A DNA stretch of 59,569 nt, counting the filler, from Dugesia japonica (taxonomy: Eukaryota): NCBI GenBank assembly GCA_001938525.1. It is 6 parts of 6 records of this genome, joined end to end, with 100 filler letters (N's around TTAATTAATTAA, not from the genome) between each part and the next. Parts side by side here need not be neighbours in the genome. Positions count along the whole stretch, not along the records: positions 11,785 to 21,819 come from MQRL01512290.1; 5 more parts are not named here. One strand, given 5' to 3'. This document shows positions 1-32,290 of the stretch, piece by piece (the first letter of the stretch is position 1; each line of letters starts with the position of its first letter). The notes beneath the pieces are model-generated. The model was not told where the DNA came from. It saw only the letters and a list, made by a program, of their open reading frames with translations, and ran no database searches. The position numbers and the translations under genes were made by a program.

Positions 1-2911
1 CCATGGACATGTTCTCATTAAAAATTTCTTGTGAACTTTTTTTAATTTCATTCCTAGTTTTAAATATAAATCTAGTGTTGAACCTAGACATACATAATTT
101 TTCTTGTCAAATTGATTTAGTGTTAATTTAATATTATCTTTTGATAATTTCTTTCCAAATGACTTTTGATAATTACTTAACATATCTTCTGTAATATTTA
201 TTCTTTCTGGACATAATGAGAAATATTTAGTTTTATCATGAATCTCCGGTGGATAATCAAGATCAACTTCATAAATATAATTAATTTCATCTGTAGCTGT
301 TTCATATTCCAAATTGTCACACTCGTCGATTTCTCCTGTGGGTAGAGGTCTCGTCATCTAACTTGCATATAAAGAATTTTCATCAATATATTTTATAAAT
401 CTATCTTCAAAATAATCTTCTGGAATATTTTTTCCTTCACTTAATAATTTTAAGAGCTTTTCTTTTTCTGCTTCATTTATTTTTCTATATGGTTCAGAAG
501 ATTTGTGACTAAATACTTGTCTTTCTCCTAAAACTCCAGAATATCCACCTCTAATTCCTTTTTCAATTAATAAGAATGTATCATAAGTTTCTGGCTTCGC
601 AAATTTCAAATTTACATTCACATTTAACATTCCAGTTTCCCATGAATAACCTGGTGCTGTATATGAATAACATGGATCTAATCTAAGAATATTATTTAAA
701 CATGAATTCCTAAAATTTTCTAAAAAATCTGCAAGGATTAAAACATCAAGTTTCATGTAATGTAACATGTACTCCCACATATTTTCAAAATCTAAATAAT
801 CTATTAAAAATTTATCATGTTCTTCATCAGATATTCCTTTTTGTGTTAATGTATTGAAGAAATCATTTTTGGTTGGTGTTCTGTTGGATTTTAATAGTTG
901 TTCTACTTCTTGTATATTTTTCCCTTTTACATATTCATAGGGAAATAATGCCTTTTTAGGTTTTAAATTGTGAGATCTTAATATTGGATAATTATTAGAT
1001 TGTGTTAGTAATATACCCATTGTTTCTACTGGTGTGAAAGGTAATAGTCTGGCTGAATCTAGAAATCTAATATTTTCATATTGAAATGTAATATAATTAT
1101 CGCTTGAATGTGGTATTATTCTTTTTACTTTTCCTGGAAATTTTGTTAATAATTCCCTAAAAAATAAATGATTGTCATAACCTGATGCGTTATGAAAATA
1201 GAATGGGATGAATAATTTTTTAACTGAAAGATCGTTTATGTTACATCGATTACATGAAAACCCTCGAAATTCTCCATTGAAATGATTGTGATCTCTAGCA
1301 TATTTTTTTTTATTTGCTTGGAGCAATATCTACATTTTTTGTTGGGTATAAATGCGCTACGCTGACTTTGGGATAAATCTAAGTGATTACCTCTGGCAAT
1401 CTCTTTTATATCTTCTAATTTTTTATTAATCTCTTCTAAAAAGTTAAAATAATCTTCATAAATATTTTCACCTGAGAATTGATAATATTTGCTTTCTAAT
1501 AAATGTGGATATTCACTGTGAAGATAAACACCTAATGACAAAGCTTTTTGTTTTTTAGTTTTTATATTTGTGTAGGCTTCAAAATCTCCTACAAGCATAA
1601 ATGGAATTTTATTTATCTGATAATGCTTATTAAAATAATAATAATAATTATGTTCAAATATAATATTATTTGGTTTATGATGAATGCACAATTCTTGATG
1701 TTTAATTAATATCGCTTCGCTCGAGTAACAATTCATGCATCTGATACAGGGATAATTTCTATTTCAATTCTTTGCGAAAAATACACATAGGTCTCTACAC
1801 AAAATATAATGTTCTTTATAAACTAAAAGATTACATTTAATTTCTTCTGGTGATGGTTTTGTTGAGTAATGAGAAATGTATAATGGTTCAAGTTGTTCAG
1901 AAGCATTTACTGAAAATACATTTATTTATAAATTATTTAATTTCTCGAATTTGCTTATGTCATCAATGTTCATGGGAAATGTAAAATCTGAATATTTTAA
2001 TTCTGATAAATATGGAATATAATTACTTACACGTGTTGGATGATCAACTACATGTTTATGTGCTAATATTGAATAAAGAAAATATTTATCGTCTTCATTT
2101 TCTATGTTGATTACACCCCGTTTTTTAAATGGTAATTTGCAATATGAACCATTAGCTAATGCATCGTATAAAGAAAGATCCATTTTATAATCAACAATAT
2201 ACATCATTGACCATCCTGAACCTTCACGATCTTTATCTTCAATATATCTTTGTAACTCATCAAATATTTCATGAACACTATTTGATATTTCACTTTCCAT
2301 TGTAAATCTTTTTTCTTTTGTATATGAATATAAAATTTTCTCAACATCCATATTATTTATTTGTTTTGTATATTTACAATTTACTAACATGCTTATAACA
2401 ATCTTTTTTCCATAATTAAAATACTTTGTAACAATATCTCTAACTTCATTTTCAAATGAATAAATGTTTCTAATTGGCATGTCATATGTTTCCTCAACAT
2501 TTTTCTTCATTACCACAGCGCTATCTAAGTAATATTAAATATCATAATCTTTATACATTCTTAATAAATCTCTAATTTCTGTATTATAATTAATTGCTTC
2601 TTCCTCTGGTAATTCTTCAAATAAAACTTTTTTTCTTTTTTTTTATGAATGTCGGAATTGAAATGTGCTTTTGCTAAATTTTGTTTTTTAAATGTTTTAT
2701 TACAAATTTCACATTTCAATGGAACGATTTCTGAATTTCCACAAAGTGTTGAATTTAAATGTTCACGTAAACCATTTTAACTTCTAAATTTTTCATTACA
2801 TTTTTGACATTGAAATGATATTGCTTCATTTCTAAAACAAGTTCTAGATGCAAGATGTCCTTTTAAACCAGCTAAGTTTTTAAATACTTTATTACAATTA
2901 TTACACTGCAT
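1..2911 (-). pseudogene. Protein-primed family B DNA polymerase (Polinton type) with N-terminal zinc fingers and an endonuclease VII-like domain; frameshifted
   Basis: ORFs 1926-2516 (EGSGW, VINIENEDDKYFLYSILA), 1236-1736 (GDFEAY, Exo I) and 358-1326 (RDHNHFNGEFRGFSCNRCN; FHNASGYDNH, Exo II; YMKLDVLIL, Exo III; GIRGG; YIDENSLY, Pol A). ATG at 2911 opens MQCNNCNKVF..H, CQKCNEKF..H, CEICNKTF..H with one in-frame stop. Confidence 0.9.
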
Positions 2912-4639: not shown

Positions 4640-5660
4640 CTCCAGAGTTCGTCAGATTTTTATTGAATAAATTTAGTTTTAAAATCATCTTTTTATTGTG
4701 TTATATACTCGTGTTTTTATTATTTTTTAATGTTCCTCGTAATATTTAAAGTTTGATTTTTCTAAATACTTTTTTGTATATATGGTATTTAGGTTTGTTG
4801 ATTTTTATCCATGTTATTCGTAATGAGCGAAATAGTATCCATCAAATTATATTAATATTTCGATACTTACTTTTTGAATTACTTTTGATATTTTCTAAAA
4901 TAATTACCAAATCAGGGAAGACAGCTGTATATCTTTGGTAGGAAGCATTTCTACCGAGATGATATTTTAACTTTGTATAGTCACTTTTTTTATGCGAGTT
5001 AAATGATACCATGGTTAAAACCATACGAGTTATCTGATCGCAGAGATTTAAACGCTAAATTTTGAAATTTGAGAATTTCTCAAGACAAAAACTCATTTAT
5101 TTCATAGAGGATTAACTATGGCGATTTAAATTTAACATATTTTGAATTAGCGAAAATATCGAAAAAAACACTCTTTGTTGACCAATTTTGAAAAGGAAGA
5201 ATTTTTTAGTAAAATTCTTTGTAAAATACTGGCAAAACCGAAAATGATCGCCGTAAAAGTTTGAATCGATTGATTATTATTATCTATATGTTGAAAAATT
5301 GAAAAAGATTTTTTCAAAAATGTGTGATGTTCACCTGGATTCCCGTAAAAATTTATTTAAAAATTTTTAAATTTTCATATTTTTAAAACCTGGGTTGTTA
5401 ACTTAAAATCATTCCCAACTAAAAAGCCTCCAAAATATTACCGCTTAAAAAGATTAAAAAAATTTTCCCAACTTAAAAGCTTGAAAAATTTAAATATCAG
5501 TTAATACTTTGAAAATCAAATTTCAGCGATTAAATTTAATCTAATGGTGTAATTTGTGTGCAAAATCTTTTCGCAACTAAATACGCATTGAAAATTTAAA
5601 ATTAGTTAAGTAATATTACCTAATATGATGTCATTTTTAAATTCCAACTAAAAACGTTAT
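4640..5660 (+). repeat. Dispersed non-coding repeat, inverted homolog of about 33040-34090
   Basis: For example, 4915-4990 gggaagacagctgtatatctttggtaggaagcatttctaccgagatgatattttaactttgtatagtcac matches the reverse complement of 33747-33820. Confidence 0.75.
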
Positions 5661-6157
5661 GATTAAGTTTTATGACATCCATAATCTTGGGTGGTACTGA
5701 ACGTGTGGTGTTCCAATTTGCAGTAACCATCTACTAAGCTGCATGTAAATTATAGTTATCTGTGTAAATTGTAACCATGTGTGTAGGAGATATGGTAAGT
5801 TATGTGTTGTCAGCTATGAGTTAATTATTAAATTTCCATTTATTTCAGTAAAGCTAATTAAAGTTAATTAATTTCACTAAAGTTCATTGAGTATAATAAG
5901 TTTAATAGATTTATAGTATTGTTGGGATCACCTGAGTTGATGGTGAAAAGAAATGATCGCCTGACAAAGACGCCCCTCAGGGGTATCCCTTCAAGAAGTT
6001 AAATCTAACGTCCCTTTATTAGATATTCAGTGCAAAGCGGTTGACCTCCAACGCTTATATGAGGTACACACTCGTAAACCTTTAATTCGGGCTCCTTATT
6101 TTCTTTTATGACATTATAATCAAAATTAATTAACAAGTAGTTATATTTTATATTATA

Positions 6158-6519
6158 TTACAGGGGATCCATAGCACCCGGGTCTAACCACTAGGTTGGA
6201 TCGTCATCTAAAAAGTTGCAAACAGCTTCATCGTCATTGTCATCCCACAGTTACCATGCAGCATTGCCTAGCTGGCAAGATAGGTCAGCGATGCATCTTT
6301 TCAAAAATTTGATTTTGTTTTGTAGGAGCTGTTTTGTTTGTTCCGCAAGGTCCCCCTGCTTCTTTACAATGACATCTAACTTCTTAATCAACCTATTTCG
6401 TTGAGAAAAGTGTTTCAGCAAGGTGAGTTTGGTCTGTTGTTTGTAGTGCCGTTCTAAAAGGAGTCTCCGGATTATTCTATGGCAACGCCTTAGACTGTTG
6501 GGAAATATAATTCGTGACA
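6158..6519 (-). pseudogene. LTR cassette ORF4, copy 1: predicted coiled-coil protein with Trp/acidic tail; starts at acceptor AG|TG
   Basis: SRIIFPNSLRRCHRIIRRLLLERH...QLGNAAW*LWDDNDDEAVCNFLDDDPT*WLDPGAMDPL*; aligns with 15635-16017; two in-frame stops. Confidence 0.8.
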
Positions 6520-6641
6520 CTAAATGAAATAAGTTATAGTTAATTATGTATGTTACCACTATGAATTGTTAATTAAATAATTAAAGAGGAAATCAGTAGA
6601 GAGAAAAAACATTTATTGGTAATTTACAAGATTAGTAAGCA

Positions 6642-6985
6642 TTAAGATCGCACCGTTTGGGTACCCTTGTCTACCATCAATGGTTTGAGTGGCATCGCCG
6701 TTTTTAACTTTAAAATGTTAATGGCCAGTTTATTCTCTCGGTCTTGGTAGGACCGGGTGATTTCGACGAAAGACTCTACTTGAGCCTTCCATATTCTTTC
6801 CTGGTCATGTGAAGCCTCAGCCTTCTTTCTAAACGCAACACATTTTGACTTCTACCGTTTTACTTTGGCTTCCGCTGAAGCAGTATCAGCCTCTCAACGT
6901 CGCTTTGCTAGCCAAAAAGGTACTATGTTATTTCTGTATCATCGCTTGACTCTCTAAATTTTTTAGTGGAGCTACGAAGAATGCA
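6642..6985 (-). pseudogene. LTR cassette ORF3, copy 1: predicted coiled-coil protein ending in VDKGTQT; starts at acceptor AG|TG
   Basis: LAKRR*EADTASAEAKVKR*KSKCVAFRKKAEASHDQERIWKAQVESFVEITRSYQDRENKL...LMVDKGTQTVRS*; aligns with 15169-15527; AATAAA at 6617-6612. Confidence 0.8.
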
Positions 6986-7252
6986 CTAAAAAAATGTAAA
7001 TTTTACGTTCAACAACAATAAAATAGTTTTAAGACTGATTAATTATTAATTATTACGAGGCCACGTAATATACTTTGTTAATTTTACGGCAAATAAAACA
7101 CTATGATATACAGGAATTCATTTGCTATATTTTACTTTTTTATACATAAATTCACATAAATAGAAGTCTATACTGGAGTTTCGTTGATAGGACAGTGGTC
7201 GACATTCTTATCGTTGCCACTACTGGAGGCATTGCGAACACTCCATAAGGTA

Positions 7253-7588
7253 TCATTTATCAACCAACCTATCCCTACTGAAGTCATGACTGGCATTAAG
7301 GTGGCGGGTGTTCTCTATCCACATTCGTTCGTAAACGGGCAATCTGTTTATGTAATAGGTAGACACCATTCTTGCTGAAAGAGTGATACGACTGCGATTG
7401 GGGCCAGTCCACTGGTAATACGTCTGACGATCAGTGGCGTCCATCATTCCTTCTTCATAGGCAGCACTGTCGGGTAGATTTGACCTCGATATCATTACTC
7501 CGACATTCCGGTTATAAGGATTCTAATATTTCTTAAATATCATACTACCGGTAATACGATCTTGTATCAGCTCCCATTTATAATCCAT
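7253..7588 (-). pseudogene. LTR cassette ORF2, copy 1
   Basis: Acceptor atag|aaATG; MDYKWELIQDRITGSMIFKKY*NPYNRNVGVMISRSNLP...RQTYYQWTGP; aligns with 14575-14922. Confidence 0.75.
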
Positions 7589-7703
7589 TTCTATTATGGA
7601 AAATTAATTTATGATGCAAATTATACTAATGGGTGTGAATTTGTTACATAAAACAAATAAGAATAGATAACTTCTGAAAAGAAAAATAAGTTTTATTTTT
7701 AAC

Positions 7704-7904
7704 TCAATTACGACTAATATATCCAATATCGTCAATATCCACCTTTAAAAGAAGGGGGAACATCTCGAGGAAACACTGGAAATCAGTTTCGCCGGGATGC
7801 TCGATCTCACCGTGTGACAAAATGTGGGTCAGTAATTGCCTTAATCGAGCAGTCTTACGTTGCTTTCGGATTAGTCGAAGTGTGTTTCGCAATACTGCTG
7901 GCAT
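7704..7904 (-). CDS. LTR cassette ORF1, copy 1 (basic N-terminus, unknown function)
   Basis: Acceptor tgtag|ataATG; MPAVLRNTLRLIRKQRKTARLRQLLTHILSHGEIEHPGETDFQCF aligns with 14223-14465. Confidence 0.7.
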   Translation of the reverse strand: MPAVLRNTLRLIRKQRKTARLRQLLTHILSHGEIEHPGETDFQCFLEMFPLLLKVDIDDIGYISRN

Positions 7905-8714
7905 TATCTACAATCATATATTGGACAATAAAATCGTGTTATTCACATGGTTATTAAAATTTAAATTGAGTTCGAGTTACGATGGGTCCTTAATATAAGT
8001 ATGTTTCAAAAATATTAAATGTCTTTGTAATTAATAAACAACCGATCTGGTGTTCATCAGCGTAATAATAAAGATGATATAGATGATTTATTATATGGGA
8101 AATCGCAGTGGTAGTGACATTTCTCTACACCAGGATAATAATAATTAGAATAATATTAATAACAATTATACTAACAATAAGGGCCATAATTCTTAAAATT
8201 ATAATAATATTACTATTAACAATGAAACAGTAATCATATTAATCAATAACGACAAAATTGTCAGGTTTAATAACAATAGGTATAATAATAATTTCGTATG
8301 CAAGCATCTGCAAGTAATAATAAAATTAACATCGTCTTGAGACAGAAATTAACAGAATAAAGTTTTAATATATTAATTTTATTTTTTATTGTATTAAACT
8401 TGTGAATTATACAATGACAACACAGTAACATACTCTTACTTATAATGTATGATTAACTGCAACGGGGAATATAACAGCACGGAATTAATTTGAATTATTT
8501 CTCCTGGTAGTTTAACAATGGATAATCGATTCGTTTAAAGTTTCAACTGTCAATTGAACCAATTATGCACTAATAATTCAACCACTTAAAGTTTTCTGAT
8601 TATTTCTCCACTAGTTGTCTTGATAAAATCACTCTGCTGATCTACCAATTAATAACTGAGTTAACCAGATTAAAATTTTGTTTTTTGAAGTTATTTTGTC
8701 TAAAAATTTAGGGG

Positions 8715-8911
8715 TTTAAATAGCATTTCTGCTTGCACCTCCATTTGTTCGGCATTGGCCGGCTATTTTTAATTCAACTTTCTAGTTTTGTATTGGTTCT
8801 CGTGCCAAGTTTTAGATTTTTTTGTAGAGTTTTGGAACTTCTATTGGTGGTTATTTTTAAGTTATCATGTGATGTTCTGTTTTTTGTTTTATTTTTTCGG
8901 CCCCTTATTGG
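8715..8911 (-). promoter_or_regulatory. LTR U3-like promoter, copy 1: four CCAAT boxes and TATA
   Basis: ATTGG at 8907, 8843, 8792 and 8754; TATTTAAA at 8722-8715; spacing 64/51/38/36. Confidence 0.7.
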
Positions 8912-9739
8912 CCAGTTTTTCAGTTGCTTATAGGGGTCTTTCTGATGGTGATATGATTTTCTCAGTACATAATCTTGTTGCCTCAGGTCTTTCTCCTTAC
9001 AGATTTTTTTTCTACGAGTCTCTGTGATTATTATAGGTGGAGATATTCGCCCAAAACTGATTTTTTCTTACTTTTCCAACTTTTATTTTTAAAATTAATT
9101 AATATTTTTCCACTAATTAAGTATTTTCGGTAATACTTTTCTTGTATTTTTATTAATTATTTCATAATTTTTTTTAATTATTGTAATTATTGTGGGTCAG
9201 ATTTGTTCACCCAAGATCTTCATATTTATCCTCTTGGTATTTTGATATTTTGTTAATGGTATTTCTTATAATTTAACCATAGTGGTTATTTTTATTATCT
9301 TTCTTGTAGCTTTTATATATATGTAATAACTTTTCCATCGTAACTATTTTGTTTTGGCCCCCTTTCCTCATTTATTCTTCGATTCTTGCCCCTAGCTTTG
9401 CTTTTCTTTTTAGACTGAGTTGTACTTATACGGTAGACCAATGGTTATAGTAAAAACTTTGGCAACCAATGAATTAATGGGAACTATAAGTCAATAAATA
9501 CACGAATCTAATGGATATAGTATTAGTATACTATACTAATTATATATACTATACTAATATATATAATATATACTATTCATTTAATATAAAAGCTTTGATC
9601 AAATTTAGGTTTTAATTGTTGACATTGGATAACAAATCGATATTTAGACCTTGTCTTCGTCAGGAATTTACTTGAAAAGTAATAAAATAAATAATAATAA
9701 ATAATAAATAATAAAGTAAAAACTAAATAAATAAATGTA

Positions 9740-11784: not shown

Positions 11785-11850
<66 letters not shown>
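11785..11850. repeat. (AAT)n microsatellite (others at 16291-16358, 21758-21819, 41398-41452)
   Basis: Directly visible. Confidence 0.95.
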
Positions 11851-12271
11851 TTTATGAATAATAATACTGTTGGGGTGAAACACCCAATGTTGGAAGAGAA
11901 TTGAGACCAAAGGCTCAAAATATAAACTAATAAAGATGGGTGGATCAAAAAGGAAGTTCATTATGAACAAATGGTGGTAGAAAAAGTACAATAATTTTTC
12001 GGGGCAACAAGTGATCGAAATAACGAGTAACATATACCGAAAACGAAGAAAAATGAGCAGGAAGATCCTCAATAAACAAATGCAATTCCCATCGAAATAT
12101 TAATTAGGAATTTCATTAAAATAAGATAAGGCTTCGATCAAAACAAAATTTATTTGTAAAAAAGTTCAAATTTTCGACAANNNNNNNNNNNNNNNNNNNN
12201 NNNNNNNNNNNNNNNNNNNNNNNNNNNNNNTAAGATAAGGCTTCGATCAAAACAAAATTTATTTGTAAAAA

Positions 12272-12306
12272 AGTTCAAATTTTCGACAATAGTCTTCTTC
12301 AGATAA
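12272..12306 (-). ncRNA. Degenerate minimal hammerhead ribozyme-like motif (Penelope type) in a small insertion
   Basis: Minus strand CTGAAGA-A-GAC-TATT-GTC-GAAA-ATTT; stem I is poor. The insert is flanked by an imperfect duplication taattaggaa...attaaa (about 12101-12120 and 12307-12326). Confidence 0.4.
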
Positions 12307-12576
12307 TAATTAGGAAAGTTATTAAATTAATATTAATTTACAGGAAAATTTTTATTGGAAAAGAATTAATTATTGAAGAAATATTAATTAATTTGTAACT
12401 AGAAAATAAATTTAAATTAGTCAAAAATCGGTTTTTCCTAAATATCTCGGGATCAGTTAACCATAGAACCAAGGGTTAAGAAAATTTAAAAAGAAAATGA
12501 TCAGACAGAATGAAATTCTGTATGAAGAAAATTGTATCACCATCGAGAAGGTTTTTACAAAGGTTCAAAGATTAGG

Positions 12577-12776
12577 CCAATGAGGACCCCGGAAATAAAA
12601 ATAAAACAAAGAAGCAAATCTCACCTGATGATCTAAAAATAACGGCCAATGCGAGTAATAAAACTCTGAAAAGAATCTAAAAATTGTGGCCACTGCCAAT
12701 AAAAGTTATGCATTTCAAACTAAAAATAACCGGCTAATAACAACAATGTCGAGTTGTGTCTGAAAATCATTTAAAA
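12577..12776 (+). promoter_or_regulatory. LTR U3-like promoter, copy 2: CCAAT boxes and TATA-like element
   Basis: CCAAT at 12577, 12646 and 12696; CTAAT at 12734; TTTAAAA at 12770; spacing 69/50/38/36. Confidence 0.7.
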
Positions 12777-13039
12777 GCTCATGAAAAATTAGTATAAAAT
12801 TTATTAATTTTTCGAGTTAATTGCAAGTGTGAAGAATCTATTAGTCTATCTATTAGTTTGAAGAAAAAGTGAAAACTTATTATCATCGGAAGCTAAACGA
12901 GAAGTTAAAGTAAAATTGAAAAGGTTTTATCTTTGAATTAATTGCCATATTTACCAAGGAAAACCAAATCGAAAACCCAACTAATATTCACCAATTTGTC
13001 AGCATCCAACTCGTTGCAGAATTCATATACCACTCTATC

Positions 13040-13046
13040 AGTAAGT
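13040..13046 (+). promoter_or_regulatory. Predicted leader-exon splice donor A|GTAAGT
   Basis: Consensus GTAAGT at 13041 after a cgttgcag..tcat block conserved in all three copies. Counterparts are A|GTAAGA (8439, minus) and A|GTAAAA (31649). Confidence 0.6.
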
Positions 13047-14222
13047 AATGTGTCTATGATTTATTTATTATAATTATTGGTTGAAATGATATAAATGATG
13101 CTAACTCAATAAACATTTAATTTTAGATTTTCATTATTATTATTACATACAACATTCATCAATAAGGGCATACTATTTCAATAGACAGCAAAAGTGCTGA
13201 CCTCGTAAATGGATACATTAGTTCCACCCAACGTATTGTCGATTCTCATTTTGATGAAACGACAAAATTGTGATCTCATGACATACCTGTTTTCTTATCG
13301 ACGAGTAATTTATCCCAGCACTTTGACGCAAATTACACAACATGTAACCTTCTGTGGTGTCATCATAGACATACATCACTACTTATCCGATCAGTAATTA
13401 ATTTATTGCAGTCGTGGTTAAAATATACCCATGAAAGTAGATTGGGATTTGAAGTTGCGCAGCCCCCATGCAGACAATAATCGATCAATTAACACCACTA
13501 CACACAGATTTACTCTCTCGCCAAAATTATACTATTACACAATCATGTTGTTAATGTTTGTGTGTACTTAGTCAGTAAGATAATTGATAACAGAAATTTG
13601 TTGGCGTAACCAAGCAACCACATTGCGCAGTAACCCAAAAACAAAAATTAATCGTTTAACGATAATTATTTAAACTGTATTGTTCGCCCTTTTATGATCT
13701 TTGTCGGATATATATTTCAACAGGATGACTCTTGATAATAGATGTTATCATATTACAGCAACCTGATTGTCAATTATTATAATACCTGTTGCGCTTTAAA
13801 TATTATAAGGCCATTAAGATAAAATTCAATTACGAGTTGTCCGATAAAATTCATCATTACGATTATTATTACTTATTATTATCGGTATTATTATTATTAA
13901 GTATTTTATTATTATTACTGGTATTAACGATACTGTAATTATTAATATCTTAGGTTGACTTTATTAATACCACTGANNNNNNNNNNNNNNNNNNNNNNNN
14001 NNNNNNNNNNNNNNNNNNNNAGGTTAATATTATTACCATCATTCTCATTGAGTCTGCTATTATTATCACAGTTGTTAACCAGATTTAAGATCATTTCCTG
14101 TTACAAACCTAGAGAAGTGCAAGAGTTAGTCGTTATTTAGATCAAACATCATTGACTTCTAATGGCTGATTTTATAAGAGTGTGAAATTAATGATGCTTT
14201 AAAATTTATAATTATTCAGAAT

Positions 14223-14465
14223 ATGTCAACAGTGTTAAGAGTTACGTTACAATTAATTCGTAAACAACGTAGGTCCTCTCGATTGATGCAGTTACCGGCA
14301 CACCTCCTCTCTCGAGGCAAAATATAACACCCCGACGAAACAGATCTAACTTGTTTCGCGGTGATTTTCTACTCGGTGGGTTCAACCGATAAAACGTTGA
14401 AGAAGCACCTTCGTGTATATGAACAAGCATGCTCCTCGTTTTGGTTTTTTCTAACAATTATTTAA
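14223..14465 (+). pseudogene. LTR cassette ORF1, copy 2 (one in-frame stop)
   Basis: Acceptor ttcag|aatATG; MSTVLRVTLQLIRKQRRSSRLMQLPAHLLSRGKI*HPDETDLTCF...; AATAAA at 14466. Confidence 0.75.
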
Positions 14466-14574
14466 AATAAAATTATATAGAAGATCAAGGGGTTATATTG
14501 TGGCTTGTAATAATTGTAATTTTCGCAAAATAAGTTGTAACTTAAATAAAACTTTGCTTTCTTATTTATTTAGA

Positions 14575-14922
14575 ATGGAATTTATATGGGAAAGAGTCAT
14601 CGACAGACGAACGCGTCGTATAATTTTTCGACGACATATAAACCCGCACAACCAAGACGCGGAGATTCTTTCAGATCAGTCTAATCTACTCCCAGTAGAG
14701 GCTATGGTAGCACGGATCCAGAATTTTGGGGAACGACAAAATTACCAGCATTGGAATGGACCGGCGCTTGATCACGTAACTCCATTCTGCTATCAGCCTT
14801 CAGCCCCGTCGCCAGCAGTACAAGCTTTTATCACGAATTTGCTCTGGGGTATTAGAGAACCAACGGGTACTGAGAATTCTGAAAATACAGACCCAATAGT
14901 CAACACGGTGACCGACCAGTAA
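14575..14922 (+). CDS. LTR cassette ORF2, copy 2 (intact, 115 aa, unknown function)
   Basis: Acceptor tttag|aATG; MEFIWERVIDRRTRRIIFRRHINPHNQD...RQNYQHWNGP; homolog at 7253-7588; AATAAA at 14986. Confidence 0.75.
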   Translation: MEFIWERVIDRRTRRIIFRRHINPHNQDAEILSDQSNLLPVEAMVARIQNFGERQNYQHWNGPALDHVTPFCYQPSAPSPAVQAFITNLLWGIREPTGTENSENTDPIVNTVTDQ

Positions 14923-15168
14923 TGGTCAGTGTTGTTTATGGTTTCGCTGTAATCTGAAAAAATAGTTTTTTTTCAAAGGCTTAATAATAAATCCGTTTAA
15001 TTTAATTTTTTTTTCTGTTAGTTAAATTGATTTTTGTTAAAAGAATAAGTATATTTGATGATTCGTGAGTTCCTAATGAATATCACCAGGTGTGAGTAGG
15101 TGTTTCGTGCACTTCGCCAGTTTTTTATTTAGTTTTTCGTTGATTTCGTTTAATGATCTATATTCTAG

Positions 15169-15527
15169 TGCATTTCTATTTGAATCGTGCAGCTGCCCCG
15201 ACCAAGAAAATCCGCGAGTCCTGTGATAATACCGAACCTACATGGGATCTTTATAAACTCGCGAAACGGCGGTGGGAAGCAGACTCTGCATCCGCCGAAG
15301 CCAAAGTCCGTCGTTACAATAAGAAATGCCTAGTTTTTAAGACAGAGGCCGAGGCATCACATAGCCAGGAAAGAGTTTGGAAAACTCAATTAGAATCGTT
15401 TACTGAGATCATCCGGTCCTACCAANACCGAGAACATAAACTGGTTGACGATATCTTGAAGTTAAGGAGGATCATGCCGCTAGCGCNTCTTATTGTAGAT
15501 AAAGGAACCCAAACGACTCGCCCATGA
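15169..15527 (+). CDS. LTR cassette ORF3, copy 2 (open; predicted coiled coil; C-terminal LC8-type KGTQT motif); start codon predicted to form by splicing
   Basis: Acceptor tctag|TG CAT; ...AKRRWEADSASAEAKVRR...LIVDKGTQTTRP*; AATAAA at 15546; homolog at 6642-6985. Confidence 0.78.
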
Positions 15528-15634
15528 ACTCTATCAATTTTATTTAATAAAACCGTCTTTTTGAATTAATTGTTATTACGTTTTGCACCTATATATTTTG
15601 AACTAAATACCGAAATTAATGCATTATAATTTAG

Positions 15635-16017
15635 TGCCACGAATTACATTTCCCGACAATTTAAGGCGTTGTCACAGGATAATGCATCGATTACTGGTAG
15701 AGAGACACCTTAAGCGCCAGGCCGAACGTGAACTTTTGAGATATCTCGTACAGCGCAACTAGTTTATAAAAAAGCTAGATCTAATCATCAAGAAATAGAG
15801 CGATCTAGTAGTCCAAACAAAAAACCTAGAAGACCAGTCTGAACCACTACTTCAGCGAAAGGTAGATTTCCTCAAACAATATATCTCTGACCTATCACGT
15901 CAACTGGGGAATCCGACGTGGGTCCAATGGGACGATAGTTATGACCAAGCGTCTTTTGATTTTTTGGTTACCCATCCGGCCCAGTGGTTAGACCCTGGCG
16001 CTCTGGATGAATTGTAA
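15635..16017 (+). pseudogene. LTR cassette ORF4, copy 2 (two in-frame stops); start codon predicted to form by splicing
   Basis: Acceptor tttag|TG CCA; PRITFPDNLRRCHRIMHRLLVERH...QLGNPTWVQWDDSYDQASFDFLVTHPAQWLDPGALDEL*. Confidence 0.8.
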
Positions 16018-16290
16018 TTCTTGAAATATAATGTAGTTATTATTGATGTGTTGATCGGTTTATTTAGTACAATAATAAGGGAAAATAAGGAACCCGAAAC
16101 AAAGATGTACGAGTCACATCCTCCCGTAAAGTTCGAAGGTCAACCGCTCTGCATCGAAGATCTAACCTAAGGGCGTTAGATTAAATTTTTGAAAGGGATC
16201 CCCTGAGGGCCGTTTTCGCCGGCCAGCTTTTTCGTTTCATCGACGACTCAGGTGGAACCCCAACAATACTAATAATACTAATACTAAGAC

Positions 16291-16358
<68 letters not shown>

Positions 16359-17589
16359 NNNNNNNNNNNNNNNNNNNNNNNNNNNNNNNNNNNNNNNNNN
16401 NNNNNNNNNNNNNTAATAATAATAACTTAAAAATATAAACAGAAAAAATAAAATAAATAATAAAATTTGGATATTATTTGAAGTTTTTATTTTATAATAA
16501 AAAAAGAAATTCTCTATTTTAGGTTTATCAATTGAAATGTTGAATATCATTAAAAATCAGTATAAATAAGTCATATGAATTATATATTAACGCATCAATA
16601 AATTATTCCATACAAAGTGCAATTTGTTGGAAAAAGGCTAGCAGCATTAAATATTGGAATAATTATGCGCAAGAATTCGATGTGTTGATAGAAATGTTTT
16701 ATTCACTGATAATTTTCATATTTATTCATTTTGATCTAGATATAAATATTAGTTTTAATGATAATGTTAAAGCAAATCACTTTCATTAATCAGTACGTAA
16801 AGTCATAGGTAGCAGGTAGTCACAAAGTCGATTATCACGGAAATAAGAATTTCAACCGATCATCAAAAAGATTAAACTGAAAATTGAATTCGGTATTTTA
16901 GAGAATCGATTAAATCAGTGGTGTGATACTCGTGGTCCTAGACAAACATTTTTTGCGTCTCGCCTAGTATATCGGGACACAATAATATATAATAAAATAA
17001 AAAAGCNNNNNNNNNNNNNNNNNNNNNNNNNNNNNNNNNNNNNNNNNNNNNNNNNNNNNNNNNNNNNNNNNNNNNNNNNNNNNNNNNNNNNNNNNNNNNN
17101 NNNNNNNNNNNNNNNNNNNNNNNNNNNNNNNNNNNNNNNNNNNNNNNNNNNNNNNNAATATTTAAAATTTAGATTACTGATTTTTTGACAGTATTAGTGA
17201 GATCCACTGACTAACGAATTTAATCAAATGCGGCCCGAAAGATTATTTAAGTTTAAAACCCCTGATTTAGATCAAAAGATGCAAAGACTATTCTCTATGC
17301 GGGCCAAAATTTTCAATGTTACATCTATCTGGGATACATTCCAAGTACACACTTGATCTTTAAAATTTATAATATTGTAACCAGGTTTCAAATAAATAGA
17401 TATTTTAATAATTAAAATATTTCATTTTAATTTTTTTAGCAATATGAGATATATGTTTGTTGTTAACAAATTGGGAAATAATTAGTGTCCTTTTTGTGGT
17501 TGTCAAACGTAAAATTGAATGTAAGTTATCATTCGTGAGTCGATTACGTTGCTTGGATTGGTTCATATTTATGATAAAGGAAGTTTGTT

Positions 17590-18550
17590 TTGGTGTCAGT
17601 CATCGCTGATAATATAATGACTGTGTCAGATGGTGTAAGGATATGTTTACCGAAGAAAAGTTCCTTAACAAAGCGGTTAAATACATCTAAAGCTAAGACA
17701 CTCGAAAAAGCTCCTGCAAATCCTACTAACAAAAATTTTGAAATACCAGAGTTGTATGCAGATTGGATTATTCATGGTTCTAGTGTAGATGACCCAGAAC
17801 GCATAATACTCCGTGGTCATAACACACTTCTAGATCTTCTAGTAGTTAATGATTTTTGGCTAGCAGATGGTACATTTAAAGTTGTTCCAGAAATATATTA
17901 CCAATTGTATAATATTCATGTTCAATACGAATCAGGCGTCGCTTTTCCTTGTTTACTGGCTCTTTTACCAGGNNNNNNNNNNNNNNNNNNNNNNNNNNNN
18001 NNNNNNNNNNNNNNNNNNNNNNNNNNNNNNGCACGCCACAAAAAATCTTGATAGATTTTGAAACTGCAGCAATGAAAGCCTTTCGTACTGTATTTGAAAA
18101 TATCGAAGTTGGCGGATGCTTTTTCCATCTATCCCAACCCATTCTGCGTAAAGTGCATGAGTGTGGATTGAAAACTTTGTATGAATCTAATCAGTCTTTT
18201 GCTATACATATAAAAATGTTGTCATTCATTGCTTTGTTATCATAGGAAGAAGTGGTGGAGGCATTTTTAGAAGTTTCTGAACTATTTTCTGATGTAAATG
18301 AGTATTATGAACAAATTGACCAAATACTCTCCTATTTTGAGTTTACATATATTAGAGGTAGGCAACTTAGAAAAGGAACTTACAAACAACCATTGTTTAA
18401 TATTTCAATTTGATACCATAAGAAATCAGCAGCAAACTGCATAGCAAGAACTACAAATTGTATTGAAGGATGGGACTACGTACTTCAGTCACTTTTTCAG
18501 TGTTCCCATCCAGCAATTTGGAAATTTCTGAATAACATCATCAAGTAATT
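17590..18550 (+). pseudogene. MULE/Mutator transposase remnant
   Basis: WLADGTFKVVPEIYYQLYNIH; ILIDFETAAMKAFRTVF..GCFFHLSQ; RTTNCIEGW (MULE D, D, CxxH, E motifs); stops and a gap. Confidence 0.88.
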
Positions 18551-18799
18551 GTCATTGTAACATAAAAACTATTTACAGCATTTAACTGATTAAAAAAAAC
18601 CATGGGCGTATTCGTTAAACAAACTTAAAAAACTTAAATCTTTTTTTAAAAATATCGAAAGTAACAAATGTATTAATAAATTAAAGTAAATTAAATTAAA
18701 TTTTTTGTAAAAAAATTATAAATAGTTTAAAGATTAATTTAAATATTTTAATACACAATTTATTGTAGATTTTTAGAAATTACAATTTTGTTTTAAAAT

Positions 18800-21290
18800 A
18801 TTAGAAGATTTTTAAATGATACTTTTAAAGCAAATGACTATTTTGCTTTAGAAATTTTGTGAAAATTTTCAATGATATGTTAATAACAAATGATTATTTG
18901 TTTTAAAATTTTGGCGAAATTTTAAATGAGATTTTGATAACAAATAATTATCTTTAAATTTTCGAATTATTTTTAATGAAAGTTTAATCTAAATTTTTAA
19001 ATTTATTAAAAATAGTTTCCAATTAGAGCATGGAGTTTTAATTTGTTTGAAAAAACAAATAATGATGGATATAGTTTCGTTTTGTGAATAAATCTTTTAT
19101 AGAATCGAGTTTTGATATTAATTATTCGATGAGTACATCAACCTCATCTAACATGGTGGCAGCGGTTAATTTTGCATGCGATCACAGAGAAATTGTTATC
19201 AAAAATATTTTGCAGAGGCGATTATCTAGATAAGTATAATACTTCACATTGCTATTAAGAAAGACCAAGAGCGCTTAATAACATGTATGCTTGATGGAGA
19301 TTTAATGACAACATATGTAAAAACATTGAAGGATGATGACGGATATCAAGAGAGATTGCGATTAGCTTTTGAGAGCAATAGAGATGTAATAAAAGATTTG
19401 CAGAATCTTGTAAGTTTTCAACGTGGAGATGAAGCCCTTGAGTTGTTCTTTAAAAAAGTGAAAGATTTGGTCGATAAAGCTTTAGCAAATGGAGAGCTGA
19501 CGAAAGAAACGCTTTTGTCAAAAATGCTAATAAAATGTGCAAATAGTAAAAAAGAAGAAGAAATTATTATGCAAATATTGAAGAAAGTAGAAGATAAAAA
19601 ACAATATCATTTGTTAAAAGAATAGAAAGAAGAAAACCTATTAACACAGTAAAGAGTTAAGCGGGTGTAACACCTAGAAAACGTACGTGAGATATGATAC
19701 AAAATATCAAGCGAGTTATGAAAAGAACAGAATCACAGTGTTGGACATGTCAGAGTTATGGGCATACCAAAAGATAGTGTCTAAAAAATGCTCATGTGGA
19801 ATAATGGACTTGTCACAAAAAATGGCATTTAAGCAGAAACTGTCCAGACAAAGAAATCAACAAAATGTTTTGGGTGTGATAAGATTGGTCATATCAAAAG
19901 GATGTGCACAGAAATGGTATGTTGTGAATGTAAAATACCAGGTCACAGAGCAGAAGAATGTTATTCGAACATTAGTAAACCTAGACTAGAAGCGAGACGA
20001 CACAATTCTAAACGCGGACAACAAACAAAAGATTAAAGTCGGACCAAACCAATTTATGTCATTTGAGAAGAGGATGGTGAAGAGAATAAATAGATATTTT
20101 CTAGGAGCATAATAGAAAATGAAGACCAGAGAAGAGAATACCTAAAAGGCAGGTCTCCATCAGTAGAGGAGTATGTCGGAGCCATTAACAAAACGAGTTA
20201 CCGTTTGAATATCCTCAAAAGGCCGAGAAATGAAATGAGACGAGTAAAGGGAAAGAAAAGGCTTACAGATTCCTAAAAACAGAAACTTTCAATGATGCGG
20301 AAAAATTTGTTTGCAACATTTCGAAGGCAGATACAGACAGGCGAACGATTGAGACATGCAATGAAGTTTCTAGAAATTAACAAAGATCATAGATTGACCG
20401 CAATTATTCAGAATAATGAAGATGTCTTCATGGTGGATAAATGAGGTATTGAATGCACACACTTAACAAAGCATCGAATAATCATCAAAGGAGGTCCAAT
20501 CAACATAAAACCGTATTGCCAACCAATGAATTCAGAAGAGAAGATTGAAGAGGCCATTAAAAATTTGTTCGATAACGGTATCATCCGTAGGTGTAATTCT
20601 CAATGGAATACGCCATTAATCTGAGTTTGAATTCAGCAAAAAAGGATACAGGATTATGCTTAGACTTTAGACAGGTCAATGCAATAGCAGAAAGACAAGC
20701 TTTTTCTATGCCAAATGTGTAAAATATGCTAGATACTTTGGAAGGTACACATTATTTTAGCTCAATTGACTTGGGAAATGCATTTTATCAAGTGAAACTC
20801 AGTGAAGATTCTCAAGAGAAGAGAGATTTTTCAACTAAACAAGAGCAATTTTGTTTCAATAGAAATACTTTTGGAATTGCAGCAGCACCAGGTACGTTCC
20901 AGGAAATGATGAATAAAGTGATCGGGAAAATAAAAGGAGTAATGGTTTATCTAGATGATATTCTCATATTTACCGCAACAAAGGAGCAACACTTTGAACT
21001 AGTCAATAAAGTATTGACAGAAACTAAGAATGCTTGTCTAAGAGTTTACCTAACAAAATGCCAATTTATCCAAAAGGAGATCAAATTTCTGCGACGCGTT
21101 ATCAGTAAATGACTATTTTTTAAATGAAAGTTTAATCTAAATTTTAAATTTATTAAAAAATAGTTTCCGATTAATGCATGTAGTTTTAATTTGTTTGAAT
21201 AAACAAATAATTATGGATATAGTTTTGTTTTGTGAATAAATCTTTTATGGAAACGAGTTTTGATATTAATTACCCGATGAGCGCTTCAAA
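18800..21290 (+). mobile_element. Internally deleted Gypsy LTR retrotransposon (LTR-PBS-gag-RT-partial LTR)
   Basis: Direct repeats 18967-19142 and 21113-21290; PBS at 19154; gag with CCHC knuckles 19287-20190; RT 20726-21112 (SIDLGNAFYQ, VYLDDILI); no RNase H or integrase. The LTR start is approximate. Confidence 0.88.
19154..19166 (+). other. Primer-binding site complementary to the tRNA-Leu 3' end
   Basis: ...CTAACA|TGGTGGCAGCGGT directly after the LTR end. Confidence 0.8.
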
Positions 21291-21752
21291 CACAAATAAA
21301 GAAGCAATATATGCTATTTTTTCAGAAAAATGGATACGAAACTTTTGTTAAACATTTATAATAATTCAGAAGATTACCTTCTTTAACCTTACTACTCATT
21401 TTTGATTTTCTTAAAATCAGGTAATCTTGAATTAAATACATCTTTCTGTAAAATACTTCTGTAAAAATTATGGTCTTAATTTAATATATTTAAATTTTAC
21501 TAATGGAAATTATAAACTAGTTATAAGCTATCAATTCCAAATTTTAAAATTTACTACAAATTATAAATTTAAAATTTAGTTTTTTTTAAACATATAATTA
21601 CCTAAAATTTAATGTTTATTTCACAAATTTCTTTTATGATTTAATTTAAAATATTTAACAAAATAATTTTAATAAATTCCGTCTCAATATACAAAAAATG
21701 TAACATCGCTTTTAAAAGCAATCATGCAATAATAATAATGATAATAATACTA

Positions 21753-21819
<67 letters not shown>

Positions 21820-23699: not shown

Positions 23700-26400
23700 G
23701 TTGTGTAATGTGTGGTGTTCATTTACTTAATCTATCCTTTTGCTGTTGTGTTGTGGTGATCAATTCAGTATCTCTTGCACGTTTCTTTGAATTGATTTGA
23801 AATAAATTGTCCTCCTTGATTAGTAATTATGATTTCTAGTGGGCCAAATCTACTGATCCACACTTTTTCGACCGCATCTACAATCGCTTTTGTTGTTATC
23901 TCATTTAATGGTATGGTTTCAGGCCAAGATGTCTCACGATCGATGATTTTAAGAATGAATCGCTTTCCTTCACATATAGGTAGAGGTCCGAAAATATTTA
24001 TGTGCATCACTTAAAACAGTCCTAATTCTGGAATTCAGTGGGGATTGCGTATGACGTGTTATTTTTTGTGATTAACATCTGAAGCATTGTCTAATTCATT
24101 CTCGAATGTCTCGATTTCATCTTTGGCCATATGTAACGAGCTCAAATGAGATATGTTGTTTTCTTGCAATGTTGTGCAATCTGTCTTTGTTTATCGTGTT
24201 GATAGCAAAAGTCTGGGTGTGTGGAACTATCTTTAAAGAATCCGTCAATCTCTTTTATTTTTAGTGAGTGATATTGTCTAAGTGAAGCGTCTGATTGTTG
24301 TTCTTTGATCAATTCATCCTTCGTTATTGAACATATTTTGCCTTAAGATAATTCTTCTGGAATTCTGTATAAGAAGTCAGCTACAAAGTTTTCTGACTGA
24401 TAAATTCAATATTACGCGATTGTCTGTTTTTTGGGTTTTCATCAATCAAATATATAGCAGTGGCTTGTTATCTGTTAAAATTGTGAATTTGCTGCTTTTT
24501 AAGTAATGCTTTAAATTCTTGATGGATAGATAGATGACTAAGATTTCATGGACAAACGTTAAATATTTTTGATCTGTTTTATTTAATTTTCATGAGAAAA
24601 ATGCGATAGGTGCAAGTTTGTAGTTGATTTCGTGATTCAAGCCGGCTCTAACTGCGATATTTGATGCTTCTGTTTGAAGTATTAACTTTTTATTTGAATC
24701 AGGTGGAGTCATATTTGTAATTCGATTCAGCGCTGCTTTGATATCCGAGAAAGCCTTTTCATGCTCGAATATCCATTGTAGCTTCCTGTGAGTATATCTT
24801 CTGGATTGAAAGGTATTTGATGGTAAGCTTTCTTCAGGTCAATTGTCAAAAATAAGGAGCTGTTTCTCAAACAATCTAGAATATATGAAATACCAGGCAA
24901 AGGAATGGTAACTGCATTTAGTAGTCTGTAGTCACCGCATGGGCGATAGGTATTATCTTTCTTTTGGACAACAACTAAGGGAGATGCCCAGGCACTTGTG
25001 CTTCTTCTTTCAACTACATTTTCTAGAATTTTGTTGAATTCATGGCGAACTGCTTCAAGCATTGTTCCAGCTAGTCGTCAAGATTTTTGAGATATAGGTG
25101 GTCCAGTTATCATCATTCGAAGTTCTGGTTTGTGTTTTAGATTATAATTATGCGCTGTTCTATTGGAATGATGATTTGTTTTGCAATCCTTGCACTGTGT
25201 TGTTGTCGAGAATAATTTGATTCCCTCGACAGTCTATTTTAATGAAATTAAGTCTAAAGAAGTCTGATCCTAATATCAGTTGACAAACGTCTGCAAAATT
25301 CCACCTGAATTTTTATGGAAGTTCAACGATGTTAAAGCACAAAGTGCGTTATCCTCGAGTTGAAATTAAGCTACTACAAGTTGAAATTAGTTGTTTGGTC
25401 GTTTCACAATGATCGGTATGAAATTGTTTGGCTGGTAGAATACTAATATCTGTTCCTATGTCAATTTAAAATTTATTACCTGGCTTTGATAATTTGATGG
25501 AACAGTGAATATTGTAGAGACATGTTCCGGTTTACGAGTGAAAGGGTTCTCAATCACCGGAAATATTGAGAATCTTTGTCTTTTCCTTGTGTTTGTTTAG
25601 AATTTCAATCGCATGGTTCACGGCATTTGCTCGCTAATTTTCCATATTTGCGTGTCAATAGCAACTTCCATCTGTTGATATTGACTTTTGTGCATGAACC
25701 ATTTTAAGTTGATTTATCTCATCTTGAAGTTGCTGTATTTCGCTTAAATTGGTTTGACTTGAGATGCTGTGTGCAACTTGTGAAGATTCAATTTAGGCAA
25801 GTCTGTCAATGACCAGCTTTCCTTGGAGACGAGATGAGGCTTGATTTTTTGAATCATTGGTCTTATGAAAGCATTTCTTAACATTATGCTATTGTCTGCA
25901 TCTTTAAAATGTGGTTCTATCTCTTGGAAGTGTCTGCGTAATAGTCGAAGACGATCTGACGGTCTTTGATCTCCCAGAGGTTCGAGGATAAACATTTTAT
26001 CCACATGATATGAGGTCGGCAATTTGATACAGTTGATTATAGCTTCTCAAAGATCTGTATATGGTGTTTCGGATTCTGTATCTAACAATTCCTAAAAAGA
26101 AGCCAGAACTGCTGACGGTAAGATAAGATGGAGGTACTTATAATCTTCTCTTAATATTCTTAAAATCCTTAAGATTGCTTCATTTTGTTTAAACCAGATT
26201 GATGGACATTCGAAGTATTGTGGGAATTTTGTAGTTATTTGGTTACTCCCATGTCACCCTCTTCTGACACCAATGTTGAGTTCGTACAATTTTGATTCCA
26301 TAAATACAAGATAAAGATGGCAATATTTATTAAATTCAAATTTCTGCTTTTCTATTAAAATATATTATTTAAACAAAATGAATTTGTATAAAGTATATTT
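23700..26400 (-). mobile_element. Degraded Gypsy LTR retrotransposon (gag-pro-RT-RH-INT)
   Basis: PBS TGGTGTCAGAAG (tRNA-Leu) at 26272-26261 after an LTR end; gag 25744-26250; RT 24727-25062 (WASPLVVVQKKDNTYRPCGDYRLLN); integrase 23765-24010 (HINIFGPLP, IDRETSWPE, TNQGGQF). Confidence 0.9.
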
Positions 26401-30706: not shown

Positions 30707-32290
30707 TGTTGGGGTGAAACACACGTAAAGAAAGGTAATAAAGCCAAAACTCAAAATCAACAAAGAAGAACAATAAAACCAGTAAATTTACTATTAAGGG
30801 AATTCAAATGAAGAAAGCAATTATGATTAAGGAGGGTTATAATGAAAATAATCAGGAAGGAGGAACAAAATACAAGCAAAGGTGGATACAACGAACAAGG
30901 TGACATAAAAAACAACTTACATCCGTATCAGAATTAAAATGAATTAATAAAATCATAATAAAACTCAAGAAAATCAGTACAAGGAAATGCCTAATTAACA
31001 AAAAAAATATTAATTAATTTGGAAAAAAAAGGAATCAGAATTAACCTAAAATCTGTGTTTCATGATTAACTCCGTTTACGAAAGTCGGAGAGAATCCGGT
31101 TAAGAAAATTCAAGAAGAGAATAACAAGAGTCATTAAGATTTATCAAGAAGGAAATCTTACCACTATCTTGAGGATTGCTACAAGGTTTTCTAGGTCAAA
31201 CCAATCAGATACCTAAAAATAAAAAGAAAACAAAGAGAGAACCATCACGTGGTCCTCCAAAAATAACCACCAATAAGAGCCCTCAAACTCTATNAAAATT
31301 CTGGAATTATGGCACCAACACCAATAAAATGCTAAGATTTGGAAACAAAAATAACATCCAATGATAATGAGGCCGGGTTGCATCGGAAAACCCTATAAAA
31401 AGAACTCTGATTTCAGTCATTTTAGCTTATAACCTTCTAAAGCAAAAAAGAACACTAATATATTATACGGATTTTTTCACTTGCGAATTGAATACTACAA
31501 AATATTCAATTTCCACTAATACCGAATTACGAGTCAGCTATCTGAATTCTCTACTCATCAAAAGTCAAGAAACCCTAACGATCTTATTTTCGAATCAAGA
31601 ATTCCATCCGAGCCGTTACAGAAAATCATCCCTAGTTATATACGAAAAGTAAAATGTTTTTCCTATTTTATATTCATATGTATCAATAATAATTTTAACA
31701 AATGAAATTTCGTTGATTTATTTATTTTACAATAAAATTAAAACATTTTTTTTGACTCACTACGATAAACCTGAAAAGTTTAACTTTAATTCTACACACA
31801 AGATTGTAGGTGTGGCCAGTATTGCGATTTACTCCGGAAATATTAGCATTACAAAATCTCTCTGTGCACACCGATTAGTGATCAAGTTAGGGAGTGAAAG
31901 TCCACCCTGTGATAATAGGGGAATGAAAGGGATTATTTCTCGAAACAGGTTTTCATGCACGAGTAGAAGGCATAAATCCAACGAGATGAAAGCGATGGGT
32001 AACGTTTGTTGGCCAGAATAATCCTGGGAAAACACATTGAATTGATTTAATAATCATTATAAAATAAATTCCCATAATTCAGCTAAATCTCTTAGATTCC
32101 GTTGTTGTTAGAATGTAATACGAGTAATTGGTGAGATGGATCATCAACGAATTACTGAATAATTGCTAGTATGCATAACTAGATCTGTACACACATGCCA
32201 GGCAGTATACCAAGGATTGACTACACTAAAAAAAGTTTAAGAAGTGAATAGTTACAATCAAATTCTTACCTGATAATAAATTGCTTAATT
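30707..32290 (+). mobile_element. Giant solo-LTR-like element, copy 3 (5' part, cut by a contig gap)
   Basis: Starts TGTTGGGGTGAAACAC after taatatat-like target (ATAT); CCAAT at 31201, 31270, 31321 and 31358; TATAAAA at 31394; leader block ccgttacag..atcat; candidate donor at 31649. Confidence 0.8.

Follow-up and report, generated by a model that had tools for sequence, protein, structure and literature searches.

A predicted splice-assembled start codon for two small genes within a long-terminal-repeat-like element of Dugesia japonica

How are two conserved open reading frames (ORFs) started when neither has a conserved ATG? The question is raised by a 59,569-nucleotide (nt) stretch of DNA from the planarian Dugesia japonica (NCBI GenBank assembly GCA_001938525.1), hereafter the window, in which six parts of six records are joined end to end with 100 filler letters between them; positions 11,785 to 21,819 come from MQRL01512290.1. 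The window is AT-rich (G+C approximately 27%), animal-like DNA packed with decayed mobile elements. Self-comparison revealed three copies (A, B and C) of one repeat, approximately 65% alike in their conserved blocks, with ends like those of a long terminal repeat (LTR); copies A and B hold a row of small frames, ORF1 to ORF4. A preliminary description had proposed that the AUG of ORF3 and ORF4 is assembled by splicing. We favor, with measured confidence and from the comparison of the copies, the reading that the repeat is one transcription unit in which an ATG-free leader would be spliced to one of several acceptors, the last A of the leader completing the AUG of ORF3 and ORF4 (A/TG, the slash marking the splice junction).

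The pattern of differences between copies A and B indicates that ORF1 to ORF4 were real genes under coding selection, which are partly broken in the copies at hand. By codon position, these differences number 16/10/25 in ORF1, 29/29/46 in ORF2, 17/15/47 in ORF3 and 20/11/33 in ORF4, and the ratio of nonsynonymous to synonymous differences per site (pN/pS) is 0.24 for ORF3 and 0.28 for ORF4. Over the first 20 codons of ORF4, the value is 0.34 in the A/TG phase versus 0.78 and 0.96 in the other frames. On the plus strand of copy A, the ORF1 cassette occupies 14220-14369 (first base after the acceptor 14220, ATG 14223, stop at codon 35, phase-1 donor-like site 14269) and the ORF2 cassette 14574-14922 (first base after the acceptor 14574, ATG 14575, 115 amino acids open, AATAAA 14986). 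ORF3 spans 15169-15527, with TG at the acceptor, 118 open codons (two containing N) and AATAAA at 15546, and ORF4 spans 15635-16017, with TG at the acceptor and 126 codons interrupted by two internal stops. On the minus strand of copy B, ORF3 (6641-6985) has TG at the acceptor, a frame closed after 3 codons, length differences of 14 nt and 1 nt from copy A and two stops, and ORF4 (6158-6519) has TG at the acceptor and 88 open codons followed by two stops. ORF1 and ORF4 are broken in copy A, and ORF2, ORF3 and ORF4 in copy B. Downstream of the leader, the cassettes share one layout, an acceptor-like site followed by a small ORF, with AATAAA in six of the eight spacers.

ORF1 and ORF2 carry an ATG of their own behind the acceptor, at +3 and +1 in copy A and at +3 and +2 in copy B, and ORF3 and ORF4 have no in-frame methionine common to both copies within the first 100 codons; on both points our results agree with the preliminary description. 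At the starts of ORF3 and ORF4 stands instead an acceptor-like TAG/TG, at 15169 and 15635 on the plus strand of copy A and at 6985 and 6519 on the minus strand of copy B. The earlier claim that the conserved frame begins at this junction in four of four cases holds in full for the motif; the frame itself runs on at three sites only, that of ORF3 in copy B being the one that closes. Throughout the window, 30 of 528 T-rich YAG sites (5.7%) are followed by TG, and the chance of two independent sites, each in frame, is approximately 4e-4, a post hoc estimate. The G at +2 is kept at both the ORF3 and the ORF4 acceptors. Fourfold sites match between copies A and B at 21 of 65 positions, and of the 21 sites at which at least one copy has G, 3 have it in both (3 of the 18 with G in copy A, 3 of the 6 with G in copy B). 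As this G would be synonymous in a leucine or valine codon, its retention modestly favors methionine. A purine is preferred at position -3 of a start codon, and position -3 of the assembled AUG is A with all three leaders. Around the ORF4 acceptor, the identity of copies A and B in successive blocks of 12 rises from 3, 7, 4 and 8 before the junction to 11, 10, 10 and 9 after it, and in copy A the acceptor is preceded by 128 nt free of AG; of 5064 gaps between AGs, 1.7% reach 100 nt. We also observed a second in-frame TAG/TG at 6558 (minus strand), 39 nt upstream of the copy B ORF4 acceptor, with no counterpart in copy A.

What would supply the missing A? In copy A, a promoter-like block recognized by motifs only (12577-12793, plus strand; CCAAT at 12577, 12646 and 12696, a TATA-like site at 12768, an initiator-like motif at 12789) precedes a predicted leader exon, 12790-13040, that contains no ATG and ends in A. 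The predicted donor, GTAAGT, lies at 13041-13046. Three or four CCAAT boxes are present in every copy, as are a TATA-like site and an initiator-like motif (at 12789, 8703 and 31413 in copies A, B and C), and in all three the donor is preceded by A (TCA/GTAAGT at 13041, TAA/GTAAGA at 8439 and AAA/GTAAAA at 31649), as had been claimed. The ATG-free runs before these donors measure 257, 284 and 279 nt in copies A, B and C, compared with 94 ATG-free 250-mers among 4128 in the window; against dinucleotide shuffles, their P values are 0.011, 0.002 and 0.25. Past the donor, an ATG first occurs after 8, 9 and 6 nt, compared with 17% of 12-mers. These figures, from copies that share ancestry, are good indirect evidence that the ATG-free stretch is a 5′ untranslated exon ending at these donors. 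In each copy, AATAAA also occurs 50-83 nt behind the donor (13108, 68 nt downstream, in copy A; 8390/8383 in copy B; 31731 in copy C; 25% of 100-mers hold one), and by analogy it could mark a short R region whose polyadenylation (poly(A)) site is suppressed by the donor.

We propose that transcription would start near 12790, that the ATG-free exon would be spliced to one of several acceptors, that each product would be cleaved at the AATAAA behind its ORF, and that the final A of the leader and the TG of the acceptor would together form the AUG of ORF3 and ORF4. Relative to the acceptor, the start codon stands at 0 (the 8307 cassette), +1, +2, +3 or +4 in the different cassettes and at -1 in ORF3 and ORF4. 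The simplest origin of the split is neutral: a cassette of the AG/ATG type, like that at 8307, may lose one A harmlessly behind a leader that ends in A, whereupon the leader's A would be locked in, with no regulatory purpose required. The split codon had also been put forward as a gate that keeps ORF3 and ORF4 silent in unspliced RNA, and this part is not supported. Between the donor and the ORF3 and ORF4 acceptors lie 31-39 ATGs and 4-6 AATAAA, so that ORF1 to ORF4 would all depend on splicing even with an undivided start codon, and just before each of ORF3 and ORF4 copy A also has an intact ATG in frame. The likely effect of the split is leader specificity, whereby a start would arise only from a donor ending in A and RNAs reading through ORF2 or ORF3 would give none.

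Reads from 4 of 24 listed runs, approximately a quarter of each raw-read run, were aligned to 12700-15425 of copy A at 80% likeness; the alignment extended through the ORF3 start, with the ORF4 acceptor and copy B lying outside it. X4 and X7 are oligo-dT runs, X1 was taken for RNA by guess, and none of the listed runs containing copy A is on record as RNA. X4 yielded 225 reads and X7 54, the majority of them on an ATT repeat, and depth at the ORF3 start was at most 1.7. In X1, the match of one contig of depth 71.5 opens precisely on the ORF2 acceptor base, 14574, and the 77 letters ahead of this point do not fit copy A. The ratio of X1 to X2 depth is approximately 1.3 in one leader bin (269 versus 210) and 0.02-0.11 in seven first-intron bins across 13064-13700 (4-22 versus 137-310). 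The ORF2-acceptor contig and the leader-bin excess are hints of leader splicing in general. No position at which many reads begin or end was found in the aligned interval in the four runs, and the promoter and poly(A) site are predicted from motifs. Among 40 of the 919 substitution entries, one fell at 13039 (donor position -2, where most contigs differ) and none at 13040 or 15167-15170. Among copies with a likeness to copy A of 80% or more, its ORF3 phase is probably the usual one, because the 12 best-supported of 117 insertion or deletion entries include no length difference at the ORF3 start, though 56 X2 contigs carry a listed substitution at 15178.

Several observations weigh against a splice-assembled AUG. 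None of the 11 joints listed for the four runs starts at 13040 or has GT..AG ends, although coverage was too low for the missing leader junction to count as evidence against it. The other two leader bins show no X1 excess (0.25 and 0.05), and at the ORF3 acceptor one divergent X1 contig lacks AG/TG and is both rearranged and unspliced. A precedes GT[AG]AG at 35 of 92 sites in the window (38%), so that the A at donor position -1 is not significant on its own, and a crude score of U1 pairing does not single out the leader donor. The ATG-free leader of copy C is not significant against shuffles (P 0.25) and its donor is weak (GTAAAA); since this copy also has no homologue of ORF1 to ORF4, it says little about ORF3 and ORF4. 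The retention of the +2 G concerns two sites, with P ranging from 0.02 to 0.25 by conditioning (3/21, 3/18 or 3/6, squared), and just two ORF-bearing copies, of common ancestry, are readable. ORF3 of copy B is out of phase at its acceptor; its first conserved block lies in phase 0 because copy B is 14 nt shorter than copy A there, with a further base missing downstream. Finally, copy A has a genomic in-frame ATG at -16 before both acceptors (15153 and 15619), absent in copy B. What stands of the earlier proposal is that a spliced A/TG is the best reading, with ATG-free leaders and A at -3 in three of three copies and the +2 G kept; no junction was seen in the aligned interval, and two rivals fit the same DNA.

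In the first of these, which we consider unlikely, ORF3 and ORF4 would be second coding exons in phase 1, placed behind the first 15 codons of ORF1 (donor 14269 or 7858) or behind an ATG micro-exon of copy A (15076-15091, plus strand; phase 1 with donor 15092, phase 2 with donor 15090). The TG would then finish a leucine codon and the products would be fusion proteins. In favor of this arrangement, copies A and B both have a donor-like site in phase 1 at 46 nt from the ATG of ORF1 (GTAGGT and GTAAGA), which scores 16 in copy B, where the leader donor scores 17, and in copy A the micro-exon donors reach 20 and 16, compared with 16 for the leader donor, with GTGAGT in phase 1. However, the GT inside ORF1 is also explained by a conserved arginine codon, and the site has C at -1, an unusual base for a donor. 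No equivalent of the micro-exon was found in copy B, and no joint from either donor is among the 11 listed. The +2 G, moreover, would be synonymous in a second exon and free to drift, yet it is kept at both ORFs. As a separate matter, the spacer between ORF2 and ORF3 (14975-15156) has a high X1 depth and most aligned contigs differ from copy A at one position near the micro-exon candidate, so that other copies may differ in their splice layout there.

A shade less probable still is that ORF3 and ORF4 start, at least in the lineage of copy A, at the ATG 16 nt upstream of the acceptor junction, which would be used by way of an acceptor further upstream (15133 for ORF3), by an internal start site or by read-through, and that these ATGs have decayed in copy B. 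Before both ORFs, copy A has an ATG in frame at exactly -16 (15153-15168 and 15619-15634, plus strand, in copy A only), copy B has ATT, one letter from ATG, at -16 before ORF3, and the divergent X1 contig retains TAATG at this site. Yet both ATGs sit in TTAAT at -19, which resembles a branch point in shape and position (next to a T-rich tract in the case of ORF3), and both have T at -3. Copy B lacks the two of them, and an in-frame ATG within 60 nt also precedes three of the six other acceptors. For ORF4, the 128 AG-free nt upstream of the acceptor in copy A and the rise in identity between the copies at the AG again argue for the acceptor rather than for the ATG.

It is improbable that AG/TG is incidental, whether because the sites are not acceptors or because ORF3 and ORF4 are expressed otherwise, an exon in the first, weakly conserved zone downstream of the leader or in its N gap being one example. 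The lack of an observed junction, a second TCA/GTAAGA at 13575 and the 44 N in the first zone leave room for this; against it, TAG/TG, T-rich tracts and AG-free zones occur at all four sites and have been kept across saturated synonymous divergence. Least probable, by a small margin, is that a leader ending in AUG is trans-spliced to the acceptors, flatworm spliced leaders having this end in work on parasitic flatworms (PMC12582326), or that the GTG of AG/TG is a near-cognate start. In favor, the first conserved block of ORF3 in copy B shares phase 0 with its acceptor and has 20 open codons, and GTG is in frame wherever A/TG is. Yet phase 0, the phase of a leader-terminal AUG, is closed after just 4, 9 and 9 codons at the remaining three of the four sites, a cis donor is present behind an ATG-free leader, and GTG would lie behind more than 30 ATGs in unspliced RNA. 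The leader-completed AUG remains the reading that we prefer.

What kind of element would carry such a unit? Copy A (11868-16265, plus strand; 4398 bases including 96 N) is solo-LTR-like and lies between AAT microsatellites. It begins with TGTTGGGG at 11868 and finishes with CCCCAACA at 16265, the ends being inverted over 9 bp. The termini have the TG...CA form with a short inverted repeat that is expected of a solo LTR (TGTTGGGGT and ACCCCAACA, at 11868 and 16265). ATAC stands on both flanks as a short target-site duplication would, in one copy only and inside AAT repeats, where a chance match is possible. Copy B (5920-9388, minus strand) has nearly the same 3′ end, CCCAACA followed by ATAC at 5920, and a 5′ end that is not recognizable; its promoter (8911-8703), the leader up to donor 8439 and acceptors at 8307, 7907 (ORF1), 7590 (ORF2), 6985 (ORF3) and 6519 (ORF4) can all be placed. 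Copy C (30707-32290, plus strand) shares the 5′ end of copy A, TGTTGGGG, and continues with a promoter (31201-31417) and the ATG-free leader to the weak donor at 31649 before it ends at an N gap; no homologue of ORF1 to ORF4 was found in it when the three copies were compared. The copy ends are those of a solo LTR, and no copy in the window adjoins a gag-pol region. In run X2, 2582 contigs align to 2.7 kilobases (kb) of copy A, 1334 of them less than 90% alike, and the family is therefore large and diverged; together with the three window copies, these contigs form the dispersed set of many diverged copies expected of solo LTRs.

Other parts of the copies are less easily assigned. The first zone of copy A (13127-14219, plus strand) has acceptor-like sites at 13127, 13412 and 13724, short ORFs, the TCA/GTAAGA at 13575 and the N gap at 13977-14020. 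With the sites at 8307 and 8124 of copy B (minus strand), these extra acceptor-like sites have an ATG at 0, +4, +19 or +1 and open short, partly hydrophobic frames, which are too poorly conserved between copies to be called genes; tblastx among the three copies found no conserved coding in the first zone and no paralogue of ORF1 in the window. Behind its donor, copy C has an unrelated 122-codon open frame (31653-32021, plus strand) that matches no Pfam family, and its lineage may carry other cassettes. The last 180 bases (16081-16265 in copy A, 5920-6103 in copy B) are about as conserved as the ORFs. Their codon signal between the two copies is weak (6/8/11, pN/pS 0.52) and no gene was called; they are more likely a cis-acting end sequence. 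A second, non-coding repeat of 1 kb, 65% alike, lies downstream of copy B (4658-5679) and of copy C (33021-34074) in the same relative orientation, and no primer-site-like link between it and the LTR end was found. Rfam gave no match in the window.

Similarity searches did not place the proteins. ORF2, ORF3 and ORF4 match no Pfam family. Protein searches returned no match for ORF3, for ORF2 or for the ORF4 alignment against longer proteins, and an ORF3 profile had none among 1.84 billion representatives. No relative appeared in searches of viral and metagenome contigs. The best Atlas scores, 0.82 for ORF3 and 0.86 for ORF2, were to phage portal clusters with 69-85 of 256 features in common, below a meaningful level. 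Judging by their charged, helix-like sequences, our guess is that ORF3 and ORF4 encode small regulatory or coiled-coil accessory proteins.

The remainder of the window holds fragments of other elements. At 361-2534 (minus strand), fragments match a protein-primed type B DNA polymerase and endonuclease VII, and we take this to be, in all likelihood, a decayed Polinton/Maverick piece. Reverse transcriptase fragments occur at 20723-21109 (plus strand) and 24730-25077 (minus strand), and Tc1/mariner-type transposase fragments at 56835-57434 (plus strand). Aspartic protease fragments are spread over 44535-50891 (minus strand), and the stretch 9785-10523 matches 44691-45460. In the former region, a fragment of a Monjiviricetes-type fusion glycoprotein (50550-50891) lies upstream of a spumavirus-like protease fragment (48437-48895), joined to no LTR copy; this order, env before protease, is the one described for Burro (PMC6431247).

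Tentatively, and at less than even confidence, we suggest that the LTR is a self-contained multi-gene unit, with one promoter and leader, at least five accessory genes reached through alternative acceptors and poly(A) sites, and the last base of the leader licensing two of them. As the whole gene set is contained in the terminal repeat, any solo LTR could express it without gag-pol. If so, a terminal repeat normally treated as non-coding would be a spliced multi-gene unit, and reverse transcription would have to copy an unusually long R+U5, the approximately 3.5 kb behind the start site, in its first step. Two proteins under selection, from a mobile family of very high abundance, would escape gene finders and proteome searches, since the DNA would hold no start codon for ORF3 or ORF4. 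The unit would also show cleanly how a start codon can lock a base of a splice site.

How does this arrangement compare with known systems? In the literature on splice-made start codons, ORFs in planarian LTRs and planarian splice sites, we found no description of the element; the primary Burro description, Repbase and the appendix figures of PMC12992720 lay outside this search and may bear on novelty. Burro, or GYPSM1, of planarians is a giant Gypsy-like element with an internal region of up to 25 kb, a total of more than 30 kb, thousands of copies and accessory ORFs (PMC6431247). The present family resembles it in the multi-kilobase LTRs that are implied, the high copy number and the accessory ORFs, and differs in that the accessible part of that account mentions no ORF array or splicing inside the LTR (PMC6431247); the available text on BURRO in PMC8532177 likewise contains nothing on LTR genes. 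Burro is the nearest described candidate for the parent family. In the MDG1 group of Drosophila, sORF1 and sORF2 lie upstream of gag with their own start codons, and long reads run through them without splicing (PMC11952523). The likeness lies in small accessory ORFs positioned toward the 5′ end of an element of Gypsy type, and in MDG1 an alternative poly(A) site gives a short transcript (PMC11952523). In the foamy virus LTR, the major splice donor lies upstream of the poly(A) signal (PMC3694450), the same layout as the AATAAA 50-83 nt behind the donor here, with no sequence relation claimed.

Start codons made by splicing have several precedents. In Yarrowia, 42 introns have their donor after the A, T or G of the start codon (PMC13309789), and the start codon of the engineered pflareA reporter depends on splicing (PMC3668367); these are single genes or a designed reporter, whereas the unit described here is mobile and has several cassettes. 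The closest parallel is the env gene of Drosophila gypsy, whose start codon takes AT from the donor side and G from the acceptor side, a junction mapped by reverse transcription polymerase chain reaction (PMC2585583), and the springer subclade has the same splice-made env start codon (PMC12992720; preprint 10.1101/2023.08.03.551782). As in those elements, the start codon of an LTR retroelement would come from a short upstream piece spliced to the acceptor of a downstream ORF, the junction being a predicted one here. In gypsy and springer, however, the codon is divided AT/G and serves one gene, an F-type envelope behind pol, whereas here it would be divided A/TG and serve two small ORFs that share one leader with other cassettes. 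We rejected membership of the gypsy/springer group because of the A/TG split and because ORF3 and ORF4 are approximately 120 codons long, belong to no Pfam family and lie between LTR-like ends. If our reading is correct, the gypsy env trick would also exist in a second phase and with a single leader serving two genes. The split start codon itself is known; its array inside an LTR is the more unusual part.

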